The notes under the pieces were generated by a model that was not told the origin of the DNA, made no database searches, and saw only the letters and a program-made list of their open reading frames with translations. Positions 3,117 through 14,317 of a DNA stretch of 14,317 bases are shown here, piece by piece. The stretch comes from a virus. Lineage: Duplodnaviria; Heunggongvirae; Uroviricota; Caudoviricetes. Position numbers and translations under genes: made by a program. The stretch is from positions 1-14,317 of IMG/VR virus record IMGVR_UViG_2648501130_000001. One strand, given 5' to 3'. The number at the start of each line of letters is the position of its first letter. The stretch's first letter is position 1.

Positions 3117-3572
3117 GTGAACCTACCACAAGATGGCATCAAATTACATCGCGGCAACTTCACCGCTATCGGCCAGCAGATCCAGCCTTATCTGGAGGAC
3201 GGAAAATGCTTTCGCATGGTGCTTAAACCGTGGCGTGAGAAACGCAGTCTTTCCCAGAATGCACTCAGCCACATGTGGTACAGCGAAATCAGTGAATACC
3301 TTATCAGCAGGGGGAAATCGTTCGCTACCGCAGCATGGGTAAAAGAAGCTCTCAAACACACATACCTCGGTTATGAAACCAAAGAACTGGTTGATGTCGT
3401 AACCGGTGAAATCACCACTATCCAGTCGTTACGCCATACCTCCGATCTTGATGCCGGAGAGATGTATGTCTTCCTGTGTAAGGTTGAAGCCTGGGCGATG
3501 AATATTGGCTGCCACCTGACTATTCCGCAGAGCTGCGAGTTCCAGCTGCTGCGCGACAAGCAGGAGGCGTAA
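3117..3572 (+). CDS. ybcN: YbcN-family protein (DLP12-type nin-region protein, reported DNA base-flipping protein)
   Basis: 151-aa ORF with GTG start, [58 protein letters not shown]..., closely matching my recollection of E. coli DLP12 YbcN (151 aa). GGAGG Shine-Dalgarno immediately upstream. Confidence 0.85.
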
Positions 3573-5139: not shown

Positions 5140-5664
5140 TTATTGTTTAACCCATAATAATTCATTGACATTGAATCCCAACTTTTGAGCGGTTCGCACA
5201 TAGTCTGCTTTTACTTTATCTGGAATAGTTGGGGTCCTTGCCAGAATCCATAGGTATTCTCTGTTCGGACCACTGACAAGAGCATACTTATACTCATCAT
5301 CCAGTTTGATTACATTATAGCCACCATAGAAGGGGCCAAAAAACGAAACCTTCAATGCTGCAGTTTTAGTATCTCCAGTAAAGTATGCTTTACCTTCGCT
5401 CTCGCTCCATTTATTTTTCGTTGGATCGTATCCACGGTTAAGTACACGAATCCCTCCGTCGTTCCGTTTTCCATAAGTAGCGCTGACCTGTTCCAGACCA
5501 CGTTCGAACCGGTTCTCGAGGCGAGCTATTTCATACCATTTTCCGAGGTAGCGGTTGGCGTCAAAATTTGTAATCGGCTGCACACCTTTAGGTGGTGTCG
5601 GGGCCTTACATGCTATAAGAGTGAAAGAGAGTGCAATGCCAGTCAACACAGGCCATAACTTCAT
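5140..5664 (-). CDS. blc: Outer-membrane lipocalin (Blc family) lipoprotein
   Basis: 174-aa ORF with signal peptide and lipobox (TLIA-C at Cys19) and the lipocalin motif NFDANRYLGKWYEIARLENRFERGLE. Aligns along its length with remembered E. coli Blc but is clearly divergent, i.e. a paralogue rather than the chromosomal blc. Confidence 0.85.
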   Translation of the reverse strand: MKLWPVLTGIALSFTLIACKAPTPPKGVQPITNFDANRYLGKWYEIARLENRFERGLEQVSATYGKRNDGGIRVLNRGYDPTKNKWSESEGKAYFTGDTKTAALKVSFFGPFYGGYNVIKLDDEYKYALVSGPNREYLWILARTPTIPDKVKADYVRTAQKLGFNVNELLWVKQ

Positions 5665-5856
5665 AATAAATCCTGTACTTTTGATAGTTGAGAGTAAGTA
5701 TGAAAGATAGATGATTACGACCGATCACTTAAAGAACTTTCATACTATATTAGGAATAGTCCATAACAGAAAAATTGTCAGTGATGACGCCAGAAAGGCA
5801 ATTTATTCCGTGCACTACACAGTTTATGTGTTAATGAATTAGTCAAGGGGGAGAAT

Positions 5857-6816
5857 ATGATAAAAAAACCTGTGATTGGAATCAGCGGTTGTTTGGCCGG
5901 TTCTGCTGTTCGTTTTGATGGTGGTCACAAAAGAGCTGACTTTTTAATGGACAAATTAGTGGAATGGGTAACATTCAGACCAGTATGTCCGGAAATGGCT
6001 ATAGGGCTGCCAGTTCCGCGTCCTGCTCTACGTCTTGTGCGCTCGATGCAAGGAAATATACGGATGTGTTTCAGCCACGACCAGAATGAGGATGTGACAG
6101 AGAGAATGACAGAGTTTAGTCGTTCTTATATGGACAAATTAAAGGATGTATCGGGGTTTGTGGTTTGTGCTAAATCTCCCAGCTGTGGCATGGAGCGCGT
6201 GCGTGTCTATGATGAAAATGGTAATCGAGGTCGTAAAGATGGAGTGGGACTATTTACGAGCACTTTGATGGAAAAGTTTTCCTGGCTACCGGTTGAAGAG
6301 GATGGGCGATTACATGATCCAGTGCTTCGTGAGAATTTTGTTGAAAGAGTTTTTGCTTTGCATGAGCTCAATCACCTTTACAAGGAGAAATTATCAAGAA
6401 GAGAGTTATTAGCTTTTCATAGTCGTTATAAGCTTCAGTTGTTGGCGCATAGTCAGGCAGGCTATAAAGATATGGGACCATTTGTGGCTGCAATACACGA
6501 GTGGGCGGACCTTGAATCATACTTTGAGGTGTATCGTGATAAGCTGATGGCGATTCTCAGAAAACCTGCATCACGTAAAAATCACACGAATGTGCTGATG
6601 CATATACAGGGGTATTTTAGTAACTACTTAAGTACACGCCAGCGTAAAGAGTTGAGCGAGGTTATACTTAACTATCGTTCTGGCACATTACCTCTTCTTG
6701 CGCCGTTGACTCTGCTGAAGCATTATCTGGGTGAGTATCCTAATGATTACTTGCTTACACAAAATTACTTCGATCCCTATCCGGACGAACTGGCTCTAAG
6801 ACTGATGGTAAATTAA
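5857..6816 (+). CDS. DUF523/DUF1722 two-domain protein (YbgA-like; TudS-type Fe-S domain plus DUF1722)
   Basis: 319-aa ORF. N-terminus (KKPVIGISGCLAGSAVRFDGGHK...RPVCPEMAIGLPVPRP...CAKSPSCGMERV) has the conserved Cys pattern I associate with DUF523/TudS; the C-terminal half resembles the DUF1722 part of E. coli YbgA. GGGGAG Shine-Dalgarno upstream. Confidence 0.8.
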   Translation: MIKKPVIGISGCLAGSAVRFDGGHKRADFLMDKLVEWVTFRPVCPEMAIGLPVPRPALRLVRSMQGNIRMCFSHDQNEDVTERMTEFSRSYMDKLKDVSGFVVCAKSPSCGMERVRVYDENGNRGRKDGVGLFTSTLMEKFSWLPVEEDGRLHDPVLRENFVERVFALHELNHLYKEKLSRRELLAFHSRYKLQLLAHSQAGYKDMGPFVAAIHEWADLESYFEVYRDKLMAILRKPASRKNHTNVLMHIQGYFSNYLSTRQRKELSEVILNYRSGTLPLLAPLTLLKHYLGEYPNDYLLTQNYFDPYPDELALRLMVN

Positions 6817-7310
6817 TTGTATGCGATATCATCCAAAAGGATGAGTTCCTGCATGCAGGATATTTACAATCGTAAAAACTACACTATGATACCCAGAGTG
6901 TCAGTTTGTATAAAAACTCTGTTTACGCTGAAGAAACAATTGAGATGCAACTTAAAGTTGGTAAACATGCCAGTCAAAATATATGATATTATGATTCCAC
7001 GCAGCTATATATAATATAACAGATTGGTTTAATAATTTGTCTTTGTGAGTTAAATACATAATTTTATACTTGTGATGTAATGAAATTTTCCTTATTGTTG
7101 AACTGGCGAATATTGATTTTCCACCTACACTTACCTGGTGTAACCCCAATGATATCAGGTGGATAATATGCCATACATATGTTCTATCATTTTGGTGTTG
7201 AATTCGTTTGATGTCCGAATTGGTAAAGAAGATATTTTGTTTAAAAAAGGAAGTGCTGTTCTCATTGATTACAATTTAAAAGATTTTTTTCATCAAATAT
7301 AGATCATGTA

Positions 7311-7898
7311 ATGATCGTAGATGTTGAAGAAAAAACAGTTAATGATTTCTTTAAAAGCAACACACTCTCACCTTTTTCTGTAAGAAGGTTTTATCCGGCA
7401 TACTTGATGGTGGAATGTGAAGATTTTTCATTGTTAAAGAACTTGATTGCATGCTTGAATTGTGATGGCAGAACTGTGGATTTTGTTAGAAATCAAATAT
7501 CACTTGCATGTCTTGCTATCTTATCTTCAGAGAAAATAGTGCAAAGTTTTTTATTTGGATGTCTTAATAGTTTAGGAAGTAAAGTTAAGGCTATTATTCA
7601 CACGGATATATCTGCAGCATGGAGACTTTGTGATATATCTTCAAGACTGTATCTGAGTGAAAGTCTGTTAAAAAGAAAATTAAAGCACGAAGGCTTATCA
7701 TTTAGTAAGTTAATTCTTGAAGAGCGAATGGTGATGGCGGAAAGGTTATTAAGCTACAATTTATATTCTGTTGGAAAAGTTGCTGAGATATGCGGTTATG
7801 AAAACACGTCATATTTTGTAAGTGTTTTCAGAAGGTATTTTGGTGTTCCTCCCCATCAATATTCATCAAGATTTTTTTTAGAAAAAGACATGATGTAA
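7311..7898 (+). CDS. Short AraC/XylS-family transcriptional regulator (AppY/GadX-like HTH domain)
   Basis: 195-aa ORF with the C-terminal AraC-type double HTH signature (...VGKVAEICGYENTSYFVSVFRRYFGVPPHQY). An in-frame stop at 7266-7268 caps the N-terminus, so the sensing domain is only about 100 aa. Very AT-rich. Confidence 0.7.
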   Translation: MIVDVEEKTVNDFFKSNTLSPFSVRRFYPAYLMVECEDFSLLKNLIACLNCDGRTVDFVRNQISLACLAILSSEKIVQSFLFGCLNSLGSKVKAIIHTDISAAWRLCDISSRLYLSESLLKRKLKHEGLSFSKLILEERMVMAERLLSYNLYSVGKVAEICGYENTSYFVSVFRRYFGVPPHQYSSRFFLEKDMM

Positions 7899-8085
7899 CG
7901 TGATGCGTTTTAATGATTTTGTAATTTTCGTATTTGATAATTGTATGATGCTTTCAGCTACGCCAGAATAATCGCGGCGTTTTTCTTTTTGAATAGATGT
8001 TCAAGCCTTACGCTAATGTAACTTCTATACCTTTCCTCTTCGTTCCGAACCGTGTACACCATCCGTTATTTGCGGAGGTGAGGCT

Positions 8086-9460: not shown

Positions 9461-9753
9461 TTGCCATTACAAAAGCCACTTCCTACAGAGTGGCTTTGAT
9501 AATGGTTTATACCCTACACGGGATAACTTAACTGATATCCCTTTTAAAGGATAAAGGTATTCAAGCCTGACACATCATGCGCTGTATCGTCGCCGTATTC
9601 CCGTATTAACAGAGACCGTAGCCCGACGGGGAACTCCTTCTGCGCGAGTGTGCGGGAATAATCAAAAACGATGCACACCGGGGTTACCGGGTACACATAT
9701 TTCATCATGCCAGCGAGTCCGGTTCTGGCACGGAAGAAACCGGACGTTATGAT

Positions 9754-10164
9754 TTAGTGCGGAAATATTTGTGTAGTGTTCTGAATGTTCTCAGTAAAGA
9801 GTAATGAATTATCAAAGGTATAGTAATACCTTTTGTTTTCGTGGATATTTGTAATCCATCTGAAAACCCCTGCTGTAGCAAGATTTTTCCTGTATTCGTA
9901 AAATGATAACTCTCCTGATTTGAATCCTTTTAAGGTGGCTTCTATAAGGCATTTATTTTTTGAAAATCTTACATTTACAACCTTACCCTGTCCTTTTATT
10001 AAAACCGTATTATCGTTTTCAAGAACAAGATGAATATTCTCTGTAGCTAAATAGTAAATGTAATGTGAGACATTGTGACGTTTTAGTTCAGAATAAAACC
10101 AGTGATAGTTTAAATTATTTCGCACTTTATCGAATATTTGTTTAAAAATGGCAACCTGAGCCAT
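9754..10164 (-). CDS. ybcV: YbcV-family protein (DUF1398)
   Basis: Minus-strand ORF; I prefer the start at 10164 ([45 protein letters not shown]...) because it matches remembered DLP12 YbcV (about 136 aa). The ORF-track start at 10179 adds MEGTT. Confidence 0.75.
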
Positions 10165-10220
10165 TGTAGTACCTTCCATGTGATATGAGGGGCGTAGTCT
10201 GCACGATTATCTAAATTGCT

Positions 10221-10454
10221 TCAATCTGGTCTGATCTGTTTTCTGAGCAATTCAGTAATGTCACTCTTTTCTTTGTTTGCTTCAGGAGAAACTCTTTTTT
10301 CTGAGCACAGTCTCCGGCGGCAGGCTTCAATGACCCAGGCTGAGAAATTCCCGGACCCTTTTTGATCAAGAGCGATGTTAATTTGTTCAATCATTTGGTT
10401 AGGAAAGCGGATGTTGCGGATTGTTGTTCTGCGGGTTCTGTTCTTCGTTGACAT
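10221..10454 (-). CDS. ylcI: YlcI-like small protein (DUF3950)
   Basis: 77-aa minus-strand ORF MSTKNRTRRTTIRNIRFPNQMIEQINIALDQKGSGNFSAWVIEACRRRL..., matching my recollection of DLP12 YlcI over about the first 50 residues. It lies in DNA that otherwise matches the right end of the lambda genome. Confidence 0.65.
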   Translation of the reverse strand: MSTKNRTRRTTIRNIRFPNQMIEQINIALDQKGSGNFSAWVIEACRRRLCSEKRVSPEANKEKSDITELLRKQIRPD

Positions 10455-10653
10455 GAGGTTGTCCCGTATTTAGTGTCGCTGATTTGTATTGTCTGAAGTT
10501 GTTTTTACGTTAAGTTGATGCAGATCAATTAATATGATACCTGCGTCATAATTGATTATTTGACGTGGTTTGATGGCGTAGATGCACGTTGTGACATGCA
10601 GATGATAATTATTATCATTTTGCGGGTCCTTTCCGGCGATCCGACAGGTTACG

Positions 10654-10665
10654 GGGCGGCGACCT
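10654..10665. other. cos site: cosN cohesive-end sequence GGGCGGCGACCT, with cosQ-side DNA upstream and cosB up to the Nu1 start
   Basis: ccgacaggttacg|GGGCGGCGACCT|ctcgggttttcgctatttatgaaaattttccggtttaagg reproduces the lambda right end, the 12-nt cohesive end and the left end as I remember them, with a few substitutions. The cosB inverted repeat (aggaaacgacag ... ctgtcgtttcct, about 10766-10825) is also present. Confidence 0.85.
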
Positions 10666-10842
10666 CTCGGGTTTTCGCTATTTATGAAAATTTTCCGGTT
10701 TAAGGCATTTCCGTTCTTCTTCGTCGTAACTTAATGTTTTTATTTAAAACACCCCCTGAAAAGAAAGGAAACGACAGGTGCTGAAAACGGGCTTTTTGGC
10801 CTCTGTCGTTTCCTTTCTCTGTTTTTGTCCGTGGAATGAACA

Positions 10843-11403
10843 ATGGAAGTCAACAAAAAGCAGCTGGCTGACATTTTCGGCGCGAGTATCCGTACCATTC
10901 AGAACTGGCAGGAGCAGGGAATGCCCGTTCTGCGGGGTGGTGGGAAGGGTAATGAGGTGCTTTATGATTCTGCCGCCGTCATAAAATGGTATGCCGAAAG
11001 GGATGCTGAAATTGAGAACGAAAAGCTGCGCCGGGAAGTTGAAGAACTGCGGCAGGCCAGCGAGACAGATCTCCAGCCAGGGACTATTGAGTACGAACGC
11101 CATCGACTTACGCGTGCGCAGGCCGACGCACAGGAGCTGAAAAATGCCAGAGACTCCGCTGAAGTGGTGGAAACCGCATTCTGTACTTTCGTGCTGTCGC
11201 GGATCGCAGGTGAAATTGCCAGTATTCTCGACGGGATCCCCCTGTCGGTGCAGCGGCGTTTTCCGGAACTGGAAAACCGACATGTTGATTTCCTGAAACG
11301 GGATATCATCAAAGCCATGAACAAAGCAGCCGCGCTGGATGAACTGATAAAGCGCAGGCGCTCACTATCAACAAGGATGAGGTTAACTCAACAGTTGATT
11401 TAA
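10843..11403 (+). CDS. nohD: Terminase small subunit Nu1, C-terminally truncated at a deletion junction (NohD-like)
   Basis: MEVNKKQLADIFGASIRTIQNWQEQGMPVLRGGGKGNEVLYDSAAVIKWYAERD...KAMNKAAALDELI matches lambda Nu1 up to about residue 169; the final 17 residues (KRRRSLSTRMRLTQQLI) are unrelated, so lambda homology breaks near base 11349. No terminase large subunit gene follows. Confidence 0.85.
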   Translation: MEVNKKQLADIFGASIRTIQNWQEQGMPVLRGGGKGNEVLYDSAAVIKWYAERDAEIENEKLRREVEELRQASETDLQPGTIEYERHRLTRAQADAQELKNARDSAEVVETAFCTFVLSRIAGEIASILDGIPLSVQRRFPELENRHVDFLKRDIIKAMNKAAALDELIKRRRSLSTRMRLTQQLI

Positions 11404-12056
11404 CCCTTACAAAACAATCAGGGACTGGCAATCGTTTTGTTTTACAGAACTCAGGTAATGCAGAACTACCGTTTTCTGTCAGGGTGTGGGGTTCCAGTAC
11501 TCGACAAAACGTTTTTGAGGTTGGAACGTCTGCTGCGTATCTGTTTTATGCGCAAAAAACGTCAGCAGGCCAGTTGTTTGATGTAAATGGCGCTATTAAT
11601 TGCACAACGCTGAATCAGTCATCAGACCGCGACCTTAAAGACGATATTCTCGTTATCAGCGACGCGACGAAAGCAATCCGTAAAATGAACGGGTACACCT
11701 ACACGCTCAAGGAAAACGGAATGCCTTATGCTGGCGTTATTGCACAGGAAGTAATGGAGGCGATACCTGAAGCTGTGGGATCGTTTACTCATTATGGTGA
11801 AGAGTTGCAAGGTCCGACCGTTGACGGCAACGAGCTACGCGAAGAAACTCGCTATCTTAATGTTGACTACTCCGCCGTGACGGGGTTACTTGTTCAGGTC
11901 GCCCGTGAAACAGATGATCGCGTTACCGCGCTGGAAGAGGAAAATACAACGTTACGTGAAAATCTGGCAACAGCAGGCACCCGGATCACCACTCTGGAAA
12001 ATCAGGTAAGCGAACTGGTTGCACTTGTCGGGCAGTTAACAGGAAGCGAACATTGA
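11343..12056 (+). pseudogene. Tail-fibre C-terminal fragment with intramolecular-chaperone (peptidase S74-like) domain; no 5' part or start context
   Basis: Frame 0 is open from the stop at 11340-11342 to the TGA at 12054-12056. The translation contains the autoproteolytic chaperone signature as I recall it (LNQSSDRDLKDDILVISDATKAIRKMNGYTYTLKENGMPYAGVIAQEVMEAIPEAV), preceded by fibre-like sequence. The ORF-track version starts at a GTG (11484). Confidence 0.6.
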
Positions 12057-12239
12057 TATCCTTCAAGCCCTGAAGGAGGCTGTTCCTGGTACGTTCAGAC
12101 TGTTGTTGAGCTGGAAATCGCAACGGAGGAAGAAACCTTGTTGCTGGAAGTCTGGAAGAAGTATCGGGTGTTGCTGAACCGTGTTGATACATCAACTGCA
12201 CCTGATATTGAGTGGCCTACGAACCCTGTCAGGGAGTAA
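12057..12239 (+). pseudogene. Tail-fibre assembly protein (Tfa) 3' fragment, in frame directly after the tail-fibre fragment stop
   Basis: The same reading frame continues after the TGA at 12054-12056 as [60 protein letters not shown], the conserved C-terminus of lambda-type Tfa proteins. No start codon or N-terminal Tfa sequence. Confidence 0.6.
12111..12239 (+). repeat. Direct repeat copy A (about 129 nt, tfa 3' end); partner at 13160-13288
   Basis: ctggaaatcgcaacggaggaagaaaccttgttgctggaagtctggaagaagtatcgggtgttgctgaaccgtgtt... aligns colinearly with 13160-13288, roughly 85-90% identical over the first 105 nt and diverging near the 3' end. Confidence 0.8.
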
Positions 12240-12293
12240 TCATTGGGATTATGCCGCAGCACGTCTTAAGCAAGAGCGAGCTGCGGTTGGATG

Positions 12294-12962
12294 CTATTTT
12301 TTCCCTGAAGCGGAAAACATTACTACAGTACCTTGAACCTTGGTTTTAACATTCTCGAAATGCTCTGAGAGTATATGTGTTAAGCCTTCTTCGGAATCTT
12401 TTGTGTTTGAAAAGATGCCTTTCTGATTGTAAATGCGCATCAGTTTTTGACCGAAGCTATTGTGCACAACTCCATCGCCAAGAATTGTGGCTCCGTATAG
12501 AGTTCCATCGTCAGTTAAGGCCTGCGCCGCATTGCGTATTACACAGCTTTTTGTAGATATATTTCCAGGCAGGCAGTGAAGAAGGTAAAACATGGAAATG
12601 GAATCAAATTGACCATGTAACGCCGCGGGATAAGGTTCAAAAACATCATGGCTAATTTTATGTTTAATTTTTGATTCCCCAGCCCTTGTAGATGCCGCGT
12701 TCAGGCTAGCTTCGTTCAAATCCATTAAAGATATCAGACTACTCTCAGGTACGTGAGTAAGGTAAAACCCAGTTCCAACACCAATATCCAGATGGTTGTT
12801 ACCTAAATGTTCCAGAAAGTGTGGAAGAAGGTGTTCCTTTGTAGGACATCCCCATGCAAGCCGATTTGATACTCCCAAAACCCACCAGTCATAAAGCTTT
12901 AGGGTAAGTGGTGTGTAAATTTTAGCCCCATCATCTGTGTTTTTTTTCATTAATTTCACCAT
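12294..12962 (-). CDS. ybcY: Class I SAM-dependent methyltransferase (YbcY-like), apparently intact
   Basis: 222-aa minus-strand ORF with Rossmann-fold methyltransferase motif I (HLDIGVGTGFYL). Resembles the DLP12 ybcY product, which I recall as a disrupted gene in E. coli K-12; here the frame is open throughout. Alternative start at 12950 (MKKNT...). Confidence 0.75.
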   Translation of the reverse strand: MVKLMKKNTDDGAKIYTPLTLKLYDWWVLGVSNRLAWGCPTKEHLLPHFLEHLGNNHLDIGVGTGFYLTHVPESSLISLMDLNEASLNAASTRAGESKIKHKISHDVFEPYPAALHGQFDSISMFYLLHCLPGNISTKSCVIRNAAQALTDDGTLYGATILGDGVVHNSFGQKLMRIYNQKGIFSNTKDSEEGLTHILSEHFENVKTKVQGTVVMFSASGKK

Positions 12963-13105
12963 GTTATAGTTTTGTTTGTGAATTAAATCAATTATGGTGA
13001 TGAATTACAAGGGGTTAAATGCTGCCGCAGCATAGCGATATTGAAATAGCCTGGTATGCTTCGATACAGCAGGAGCCGAATGGCTGGAAGACCGTCACCA
13101 CATAG

Positions 13106-13288
13106 TTCTACATCCAGGAATTCAGTGAGCATATTGCGCCACTTCAGGATGCTGTAGATCTGGAGATCGCAACGGAGGAAGAAAACTCGTTGCTGGAAGC
13201 CTGGAAGAAGTATCGGGTGTTGCTGAACCGTGTTAATACAACAACTGCACCGGATATTGAATGGCCAACAGTACCCATTATCGAATAG
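13106..13288 (+). pseudogene. Tail-fibre assembly protein (Tfa) C-terminal remnant (tfaX-like)
   Basis: After an in-frame TAG at 13103-13105 the frame reads [60 protein letters not shown] with no Met, a typical Tfa C-terminus. A short upstream ORF (ATG at 13019, 28 aa) may be a further fragment of the same degraded gene. Confidence 0.6.
13160..13288 (+). repeat. Direct repeat copy B (tfa 3' end); partner at 12111-12239
   Basis: See copy A. Same orientation, with the methyltransferase gene between the copies on the opposite strand. Confidence 0.8.
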
Positions 13289-13297
13289 TGCATTACG

Positions 13298-13334
13298 AAC
13301 TGCAGGATATTATATGGGATAATATTCTGCAGTT
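13298..13334. repeat. 16-bp inverted repeat with 5-nt spacer between the tfa remnant and the convergent GGDEF gene
   Basis: aactgcaggatattat (13298-13313), loop atggg, ataatattctgcagtt (13319-13334): 15 Watson-Crick pairs plus one G-T. No clean T tract follows on either strand, so it is either a bidirectional terminator-like hairpin or a protein-binding palindrome. Confidence 0.7.
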
Positions 13335-13361
13335 TATTGGGGCTGTATTTTAAAAAGGTGT

Positions 13362-14234
13362 TTATTTTGAGTGAATTATCACCTTGTTTTTTCCGGTTCT
13401 TTTGGCTTGATATAACGCTTTATCGGCATTGACTAACATTTCAGATGGGCTGAGATTATTCTCTTTTGAAGTAAAGCAACCAATACTGACAGTTATTTTC
13501 TCAGGTCCATGCGATAATAATTTTTCCGAGCATTGCTCTTCAATGTTTTTTCTGATTCGCTCTGCAATTGATAGCAAGAGCTTTTGAGTATTACCTTTAA
13601 TGATAATACCGAACTCCTCACCGCCTAAGCGCCCTAATACATCCTCTTTCCTGATGGATTTTTTTATTATTCTGGTAACCATTACTATGACTTGATCACC
13701 CATATGATGCCCCCATTTGTCATTGATGCTTTTGAAACTGTCAATATCTAACATTATTACTGAGAAATCATGGTGTTTTGATATATTCTTCAATGAGTCA
13801 ATAAAGTATCTTCTATTGTATGTATTCGTTAGTGGATCATGAATTGCCATATGATTAGCATGATTTAATTTCCTGAAAACATAATACATGAGTGTTGAAA
13901 TGATATAAATCATTGATATCAATTCAAGAAATTTTGTCATATACCATGCAGGATGGGATTTATCAATAAAATACAATAAAATTAGATTATTGCATACTGA
14001 CACTATACTAATAAGTATTATACACAACCATATTTTTGAGTAATTACGTATGCTGATGCATGAGCTGATAAGTAATACAAGCCAAAATACTGATATTATT
14101 TTGGTGTACACGATATTCCACGTCGGCAAATGACGATTCAGCGAGTATTGTATAATATTAAGACTATATTTTATATTGTCACTGCTTAGATTTTTTGCTA
14201 CAAACGGAGTAATAAAAAGAATTAATATTGACAA
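13362..14234 (-). CDS. Membrane-anchored GGDEF-domain diguanylate cyclase (intact GGEEF active site and RxxD I-site)
   Basis: 290-aa minus-strand ORF with an N-terminal half of several hydrophobic helices and a C-terminal GGDEF domain (HDPLTNTYNRRYF...IMLDIDSFKSINDKWGHHMGD...IRKEDVLGRLGGEEFGIII): RKED lies five residues before GGEEF. Strongly AT-rich. The true N-terminus may lie upstream of the annotated Met. Confidence 0.85.
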   Translation of the reverse strand: MSILILFITPFVAKNLSSDNIKYSLNIIQYSLNRHLPTWNIVYTKIISVFWLVLLISSCISIRNYSKIWLCIILISIVSVCNNLILLYFIDKSHPAWYMTKFLELISMIYIISTLMYYVFRKLNHANHMAIHDPLTNTYNRRYFIDSLKNISKHHDFSVIMLDIDSFKSINDKWGHHMGDQVIVMVTRIIKKSIRKEDVLGRLGGEEFGIIIKGNTQKLLLSIAERIRKNIEEQCSEKLLSHGPEKITVSIGCFTSKENNLSPSEMLVNADKALYQAKRTGKNKVIIHSK

Positions 14235-14317
14235 AACAACAATTATTATGTTTCTTTTATCTTCTAAAACACTTTTATTTTTAACATTGGTGGAATAAAC
14301 AGCCAGAAAGATTATAG

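Follow-up and report, generated by a model that had tools for sequence, protein, structure and literature searches.

When an AT-rich diguanylate cyclase gene lies beside the tail-fiber remnants of a prophage, the question is whether it belongs to the prophage or to the neighboring chromosome, and whether it encodes a working enzyme. Such a gene closes the window, that is, the whole 14,317-nucleotide stretch of DNA analyzed here, which matches E. coli WCHEC020031 (NZ_CP033401.1, L001 7002-21318) with 100% identity. We are highly confident that it is the distal three-quarters of dgcX, which encodes an inner-membrane MASE4-GGDEF cyclase and is carried as an AT-rich cargo module within a defective lambda-type prophage.

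A dgcX allele at the window edge

The ORF listing places the gene on the minus strand, with its stop codon at 13362-13364 and the frame open through the last base of the window. The complete gene in NZ_CP033401.1 measures 1,332 nt and encodes 443 aa, so the window carries codons 127-443 only, and codons 1-126 (378 nt at the 5' end) lie past its end, as do the promoter region and attR. The first-pass annotation, made from the window alone, was silent on both the minus strand and the truncation of the gene by the window edge. The parts of the gene present in the window are as follows.

13362-14317, minus strand: 3' part of dgcX, 956 nt, codons 127-443 plus stop (ORF and alignment to NZ_CP033401.1)
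13383-13847, minus strand: GGDEF catalytic domain, residues 283-437 (PF00990, 152 bits against a cut-off of 23.8)
13611-13625, minus strand: A-site GGEEF, G357-F361 (motif in the translation)
13641-13652, minus strand: I-site RKED (RxxD), R348-D351, five residues upstream of the A-site (motif; aligns to PleD RAID, R359-D362)
13872-14315, minus strand: in-window part of MASE4, residues 127-274, comprising the end of TM4 and TM5-TM8 (PF17158, AlphaFold2 model)

Judged by its sequence, the gene is dgcX, an accessory E. coli membrane-bound diguanylate cyclase that has already been named and studied experimentally. The protein shares 436 of 443 residues (98%, seven substitutions) with the copy in the O104:H4 strain FWSEC0009, where the gene order is J-lom-stf-tfa-dgcX-ybhB-bioA. 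It is the same gene as that encoding DgcX of O104:H4, ETEC H10407/E24377A, SE11 and Fec101 (PMC4287979, PMC10459773). The O104:H4 protein likewise has 443 aa, a MASE4-GGDEF architecture, GGEEF at 357-361 and an RxxD motif, and its gene also lies by lambdoid tail-fiber genes at lambda attB, but the carrier here is a defective DLP12-like remnant of ~25.4 kb, whereas the O104:H4 prophage bears J-lom-stf-tfa. Twenty-nine residues separate the window allele from the copy at argW/CPS-53, which is where the Fec101-type gene used for mutants is reported to lie (PMC10459773).

The gene was named by Richter et al. (2014) as an extra diguanylate cyclase of EAEC/O104:H4, some ETEC and some commensals (PMC4287979). 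In their description, both the A-site and the I-site are intact, and the N-terminal ~270 aa form a domain, common to YcdT and YeaI, for which eight helices were predicted; dgcX was invariably found beside lambdoid prophage DNA, mostly at lambda attB (PMC4287979). Among reporter fusions to E. coli diguanylate cyclase genes, dgcX expression was the highest and was both sigma70- and sigmaS-dependent, and DgcX was proposed to add to the high CsgD/curli levels and strong biofilm of the O104:H4 strain behind the 2011 outbreak (PMC4287979).

Cimdins-Ahne et al. (2023) class DgcX as a MASE4-GGDEF protein, the overexpression of which increases csgD-independent cellulose production and represses motility (PMC10459773). 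Both effects were abolished in GGEAF and GGAAF mutants, and a dgcX deletion mutant showed slightly raised motility (PMC10459773). The published in vivo work covers alleles 93-98% identical to that of the window. The first-pass annotation would have been undone by a lack of cyclase activity, and the GGEEF-dependent cellulose induction and motility repression seen with these alleles speak against such a lack (PMC10459773).

The GC content is 31.0% in 13362-14317 versus 44.6% over the remaining window, with a GC3 of 31%, and this foreign composition agrees with the earlier suggestion of a separate acquisition. AT-richness is not peculiar to dgcX, as three more low-GC troughs occur in the window (~1500-2250, ~6750-8000 and ~9750-10250). 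A 10/12 match to the consensus -35/-10 elements lies off-window at L001 21795-21767, 73 nt upstream of the dgcX ATG, in a scan whose yield was no higher than that from shuffled sequence. This promoter/terminator scan also missed two hairpins, at 13297-13335 and in a GC-rich element, which were later folded separately.

Membrane domain, catalytic residues and selection

The N-terminal domain, which the first-pass annotation recognized as a multi-helix membrane domain but could not name, is MASE4 (PF17158). The full-length protein scores 124.2 bits against a gathering cut-off of 28.4 (residues 40-274, profile positions 4-237 of 239), and the part in the window still scores 64.9 bits against the same cut-off (profile positions 91-237 of 239). 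An AlphaFold2 model (mean pLDDT 76.6) contains eight long helices (8-27, 38-67, 72-96, 103-135, 142-169, 194-214, 220-244 and 249-284), the eighth of which continues into the GGDEF domain. Kyte-Doolittle hydrophobic segments are consistent with the modeled membrane helices, of which ~4.3 of the predicted eight are covered by the window. The model also places a small beta-hairpin (181-192) in the TM5-TM6 loop, which holds the invariant residues S171, Y176 and W192. Published helix counts for DgcX disagree, with eight in one study and six in the other (PMC4287979, PMC10459773).

Intact GGEEF and RxxD motifs had led to the prediction of an active cyclase, and the alignment to PleD upholds it. Residues D316, K321, N324, D333, R348, D351, R355, the GGEEF motif at 357-361 and K431 of DgcX align to the catalytic and I-site residues of PleD. 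The PleD counterparts D327, K332, N335, D344, R359, D362, E370, E371 and K442 are those that we take to have catalytic, binding or I-site roles. At the position of PleD R446, DgcX has K435, a conservative replacement. When 18 MASE4-GGDEF proteins were aligned, all of the listed PleD-equivalent residues outside the A-site were invariant; within the A-site, only G358 and F361 are invariant, as the degenerate CdgI rows read EGDVF. The E359A and E360A mutants of the published work carry the same A-site numbering as used here. Because its active site and I-site are complete, the window allele is likely an active cyclase.

The paralogs DgcT and CdgI share 35-39% identity with DgcX. DgcT (YcdT) of K-12 is a MASE4-GGDEF protein with intact GGEEF and RxxD motifs and conserved MASE4 residues (37% identity over 408 residues), but unlike dgcX, its gene is core chromosomal, adjoins pgaABCD and has no prophage link. 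DgcT expression is very weak (PMC4287979). CdgI (YeaI) of K-12 is likewise built as a MASE4-GGDEF protein and retains its I-site, but its own A-site is degenerate (EGDVF).

Between attB-type and argW-type alleles, dN/dS is 0.18 and is low in the MASE4 and GGDEF parts alike. PADLOC matched DgcX to no defense-system family at E <= 0.01, and in PHROGs the GGDEF domain alone was matched, to families of unknown function. A literature search on MASE4 yielded no paper giving a signal or ligand for the domain.

Taken together with the family and the published in vivo mutants, these features suggest how the protein may work. The last helix of the eight-helix MASE4 domain would form a stalk into the cytoplasmic GGDEF domain, and a dimer of two GGDEF domains would condense two GTP into c-di-GMP. 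The RxxD I-site would be expected to provide product feedback inhibition, and the MASE4 bundle presumably tunes activity to a membrane or periplasmic cue. Downstream, the predicted consequences would be those published, namely csgD-independent cellulose production and lower flagellar motility.

Attachment sites and the cargo slot

The lambda core GCTTTTTTATACTAA is present in one copy between dgcX and ybhB (attR, L001 22335-22349) and in one copy between int and ybhC (attL, L004 3424-3438). The arms outside the cores are identical to the empty attB of K-12 (75/75 positions at attR and 60/60 at attL), whereas those inside the cores are unrelated to it (17/60 and 19/75). The two cores enclose ~25.4 kb at the lambda attB site (ybhC/ybhB), including int, xis, exo-bet-gam, immunity, replication, nin, Q and lysis genes. 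The prophage is defective, as nohD is joined straight to a tail-fiber fragment and the head and tail genes are deleted.

The start codon of dgcX lies 640 bp inside attR. On the right, the ~400 bp preceding the core (L001 21945-22353) share 92-96% identity with the sib/attP region of HK106 and HK97, in which attP follows tfa with no gene in between. On the left, phage records are matched precisely as far as the stop codon of tfa. What remains is a module of 1,655 bp (L001 20290-21944) with 30.5% GC versus 45% for the prophage, consisting of a hairpin, the ORF and ~250 bp of upstream sequence. Since the att cores lie outside dgcX and phage DNA flanks it on both sides, dgcX is prophage cargo and not flanking chromosome. 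The first-pass annotation had left this to attachment-site mapping, which now puts dgcX within the att boundaries and so agrees with its view of a prophage-linked gene. The anatomy, as far as att cores and flanking similarity indicate, is that of an internal cargo gene, and it refines the proposal of Richter et al. (2014) that dgcX hitchhikes by specialized transduction.

The features on the tail-fiber side of the module are as follows.

11349-12239, plus strand: stf fragment and first tfa fragment, joined directly to nohD (RefSeq annotation)
12254-12293, no strand assigned: GC-rich hairpin element CCGCAGCACG...CGTGCTGCGG, after the first tfa fragment (blastn, folding, alignment)
12294-12962, minus strand: class I SAM-dependent methyltransferase, equivalent to ybcY of DLP12 (RefSeq; Pfam methyltransferase domains)
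13112-13288, plus strand: tfa 3' fragment, lambda-type, equivalent to tfaX of DLP12, left border of the module (RefSeq annotation)
13297-13335, no strand assigned: hairpin with a 17-bp stem between the tfa and dgcX stop codons (folding)

The position of dgcX beside tail-fiber remnants, described earlier, thus holds, with stf/tfa fragments at 11349-12239 and a tfa fragment ending at 13288. The latter is 88-93% identical to tfa of lambda, HK629/630 and ev099, and its stop codon is separated from the convergent stop codon of dgcX by a spacer of 73 nt. The hairpin in this spacer folds at -24.8 kcal/mol (z = -5.4) on the plus strand and at -15.8 kcal/mol (z = -5.2) on the minus strand and is a probable bidirectional terminator. 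It is assigned to the dgcX module and not to the phage tfa gene because the resemblance to phage records does not extend past the tfa stop codon.

The prophage has the gene order of DLP12: ybcN, ninE, ybcO, rusA, ylcG, Q, essD, rrrD, Rz, ybcV, ylcI, nohD, stf', tfa', a ybcY-type methyltransferase and tfa'. In DLP12 itself, the genes of the last part of this order are named nohD-aaaD-tfaD-ybcY-tfaX. After the last tfa', DLP12 carries appY-ompT and the window prophage carries dgcX. The slot (after tfaX in DLP12), the upstream gene order and the AT-richness of the cargo are therefore alike in both, whereas the cargo differs, being a regulator and a protease in DLP12 versus a c-di-GMP synthase here, and the window prophage resides at lambda attB. 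The methyltransferase, which matches phrog_2132 along its full length (E = 8e-157), is cargo as well, giving two tfa-plus-cargo units in tandem.

Folded on the minus strand, the GC-rich hairpin element resembles a terminator. Past the window end, it recurs immediately upstream of the promoter region of dgcX (L001 21945-21990). HK106, which has no cargo, carries the element 124 nt after tfa, and at a Rac-end locus and an E. albertii locus it flanks the cargo on both sides. From this arrangement, we infer that the GC-rich hairpin and the tfa 3' end may act as conserved flanks for recombinational exchange of cargo.

Distribution and relatives

A dgcX match occurs in 771 of 5426 complete E. coli genomes, and at least 80% of the gene is covered in 767 of them (~14%). 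By identity, 584 fall at >=99%, 100 at 95-99% and 86 at 90-95%. The tfa-dgcX junction is kept in 765 of the 767 carriers, the dgcX-attR-ybhB junction is the same as here in 586, and the nohD-stf'-tfa'-methyltransferase-tfa' deletion architecture of the window is found in 187 genomes. A few strains have IS1 insertions in dgcX. Alleles of ~94% identity reside in a prophage remnant at argW/CPS-53, with a tfa fragment on one side and ~110 bp of HK97-like sequence on the other. A gene that lies inside attR and occurs in ~14% of complete genomes is not a conserved core chromosomal cyclase outside the prophage, the alternative that had been weighed when the locus was first described.

Elsewhere, dgcX is present on 16 IMG/VR contigs, and a full-gene search found it in none of the 50,697 isolated phage genomes and gave no match among plasmid records. 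As no isolated phage genome carries it, we infer packaging in viable phage from the prophage anatomy only. A scan of GTDB species representatives returned only E. coli, one 2.5-kb contig labeled as a Bacillota MAG (98% identical) and one weak unrelated match. The Bacillota-labeled contig probably represents E. coli DNA binned in error, and the GTDB species-representative genomes gave no donor lineage for dgcX with its ~30% GC.

Relatives of DgcX within Escherichia have 85, 83, 81, 67 and 51-52% identity, and the nearest outside the genus are Citrobacter proteins with 41-44%. A 51% relative is located at the right end of a Rac-type prophage, adjoining uspF. The E. albertii relative adjoins tfa and is accompanied by a gene with a metallo-beta-lactamase fold and a faint Apyc1 match. 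The 67% relative sits between ybcH, of the nfrBA-ybcH operon, and folD. A broader reading, which we hold to be doubtful, is that DgcX and its 51-85% relatives form a true lambdoid cargo family, exchanged in a tfa-sib/attP slot bordered by hairpin copies, carried by phages rather than transduced, and selected in part because constitutive c-di-GMP would protect the lysogen from competing phages.

Several other explanations of the locus have to be weighed against prophage-borne, active dgcX. Richter et al. proposed hitchhiking by specialized transduction because dgcX always lies directly beside lambdoid prophage DNA (PMC4287979), in which case the gene would be chromosomal DNA from just outside the prophage, moved by aberrant excision; a core chromosomal cyclase would look much the same. 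The lack of dgcX in isolated phages fits this idea, which we nevertheless regard as very unlikely. Between dgcX and the chromosome lies an att core, with a B' arm identical to the empty K-12 attB, the 400 bp from dgcX to that core are sib/attP-arm DNA of the HK106/HK97 type, and the argW-site copies as well as the Rac-end and E. albertii relatives (51-52%) retain phage tfa and phage hairpin flanks. The gene is also missing from 86% of complete genomes, and the att and flank evidence rules out both a core gene and cargo of specialized transduction. It is more improbable again, to the point of being hardly credible, that DgcX lacks catalysis and serves as a c-di-GMP receptor or scaffold in the manner of CdgI, which combines the same architecture with a lost A-site and binds c-di-GMP via its I-site, or that dgcX is a pseudogene decaying in a dead prophage, as the defective state of its host and the occasional IS1 insertions might suggest. 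The GGEEF motif and every aligned metal-, base- and phosphate-binding residue are intact, at least 80% of the gene is kept in 767 genomes, dN/dS between the attB-type and argW-type alleles is 0.18, and the published phenotypes require the GGEEF motif (PMC10459773). Intact motifs, purifying selection and the published mutants rule out both forms of degeneration.

Next to no probability is given to DgcX being a Hypr-type GGDEF protein that makes cGAMP or another mixed cyclic dinucleotide, for instance in cyclic-nucleotide defense, even though dgcX is phage-associated and its E. albertii relative has the faint Apyc1-like neighbor. Hypr GGDEFs typically have Ser at the base-specifying position. 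In DgcX, this residue is an Asp (D333, PleD D344), which is invariant in the MASE4-GGDEF alignment and rules out a Hypr identity, and the phenotypes of DgcX are canonical c-di-GMP outputs. The search with PADLOC likewise gave no match for a defense-system component. Active c-di-GMP synthesis could still be kept mainly for the benefit of the prophage, if constitutive c-di-GMP alters the matrix, motility or c-di-GMP-dependent surface polysaccharides and thereby how competing phages adsorb, by way of superinfection exclusion or masked receptors. In favor of this, DgcX-like genes occupy the classical lysogenic-conversion slot by the tail-fiber genes in several unrelated prophages, and the 67% relative adjoins the nfrBA-ybcH operon, the glycosyltransferase of which is annotated as c-di-GMP-activated in K-12 RefSeq. 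We consider it unlikely, as PADLOC matched DgcX to no defense system, and the cellulose, curli and motility phenotypes are equally explained by an advantage that the host gains in the gut or in biofilms. The change in phage receptor exposure raised in the first-pass annotation is likewise speculative.

The preferred reading, dgcX as internal cargo encoding a predicted active cyclase, adds no new biology in itself, as the existence of dgcX and its prophage linkage are established. The additions made here are modest: base-level placement inside attR, a frequency of ~14% among complete genomes, and the finding that DgcX-like genes recur in the post-tfa slot. With dgcX inside an att-bounded genome, ordinary lysogeny becomes a more plausible route of spread than rare specialized transduction. 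The prophage of the window is a defective DLP12-like remnant, so dgcX would now be inherited as a fixed lysogenic-conversion gene, and about one in seven complete E. coli genomes carries dgcX, often in a defective prophage that is unable to leave.

Disrupted and atypical dgcX records

One E. coli record (P0022) carries an annotated 403-aa protein in which a GGDEF domain, 98% identical to the C-terminus of the MASE4-GGDEF diguanylate cyclase DgcX, is fused to YbgA-type domains (PF04463/PF08349). Because the YbgA-family gene (5857-6816) and dgcX lie on opposite strands in the window, this fusion would require a rearrangement, or else be an assembly artefact. In NZ_CM136147.1, IS1 breaks dgcX apart, with the MASE4 and GGDEF fragments annotated separately, and strain YD786 (NZ_CP013112.1) has an IS1 in or beside the 5' end of the gene (hits H1/H21 and H76 cover both IS1 records). 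In at least one or two lineages, these insertions have probably inactivated dgcX. A 2.5-kb contig from a Bacillota MAG bin (JAEWTL010000008.1) encodes DgcX at 98% identity and is most likely mis-binned E. coli DNA.

DgcX-like genes in other loci

A DgcX-like gene of 67% identity and 30% GC occurs in E. coli CP057162.1 (L027/L028 8001-9335), upstream of folD and with the nfrB-nfrA-ybcH exopolysaccharide operon adjoining it on its upstream side. No prophage genes were found among the called genes around it. A local signalling pairing with NfrB is conceivable, as the K-12 RefSeq annotation describes NfrB as a c-di-GMP-activated glycosyltransferase. The E. albertii locus L031 has a metallo-beta-lactamase-fold gene at 9533-10336 whose Pfam match to Anti-Pycsar Apyc1 is faint. 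It is flanked by the tail fibre assembly gene tfa and a DgcX-like gene of 52% identity, and the cargo slot is the one that dgcX occupies.

Cargo positions and their borders

Stx phages carry stx between Q and their lysis genes. In the window, this slot (5140-6816 and 6750-8000) holds a minus-strand lipocalin-family gene and the YbgA-family gene, after which comes a helix-turn-helix gene that is frameshifted and has 31.6% GC. The K-12 prophage DLP12 has nmpC at this position.

Further along, at 12105-13288, the window contains two tandem units, tfa'-methyltransferase and tfa'-dgcX, each consisting of a tfa 3' end (tfa') and, after it, a minus-strand cargo gene. This layout is matched by tfaD-ybcY-tfaX in DLP12, where appY-ompT stands in place of dgcX. 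The methyltransferase gene is intact in the window (full-length match to phrog_2132), while its K-12 counterpart ybcY is a pseudogene.

A conserved GC-rich hairpin of approximately 45 nt, AAACCGCAGCACGTCGTATGCAAGAACGTGCTGCGGTTGG, which is terminator-like on the minus strand, was located as follows.

Copies of the GC-rich hairpin
Window 12254-12293: one copy
L001 (E. coli WCHEC020031) 21945-21990: further copy
Locus L005 ~3501-3545: further copy
Locus L029 7088-7160 and 9629-9670: two copies
L031 (E. albertii) 7097-7150 and 10595-10670: two copies

In several lambdoid prophages the hairpin is repeated at the edges of cargo genes downstream of tfa, and in the cargo-free phage HK106 it lies a short way beyond tfa. 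The hairpin may mark a site of cargo exchange.
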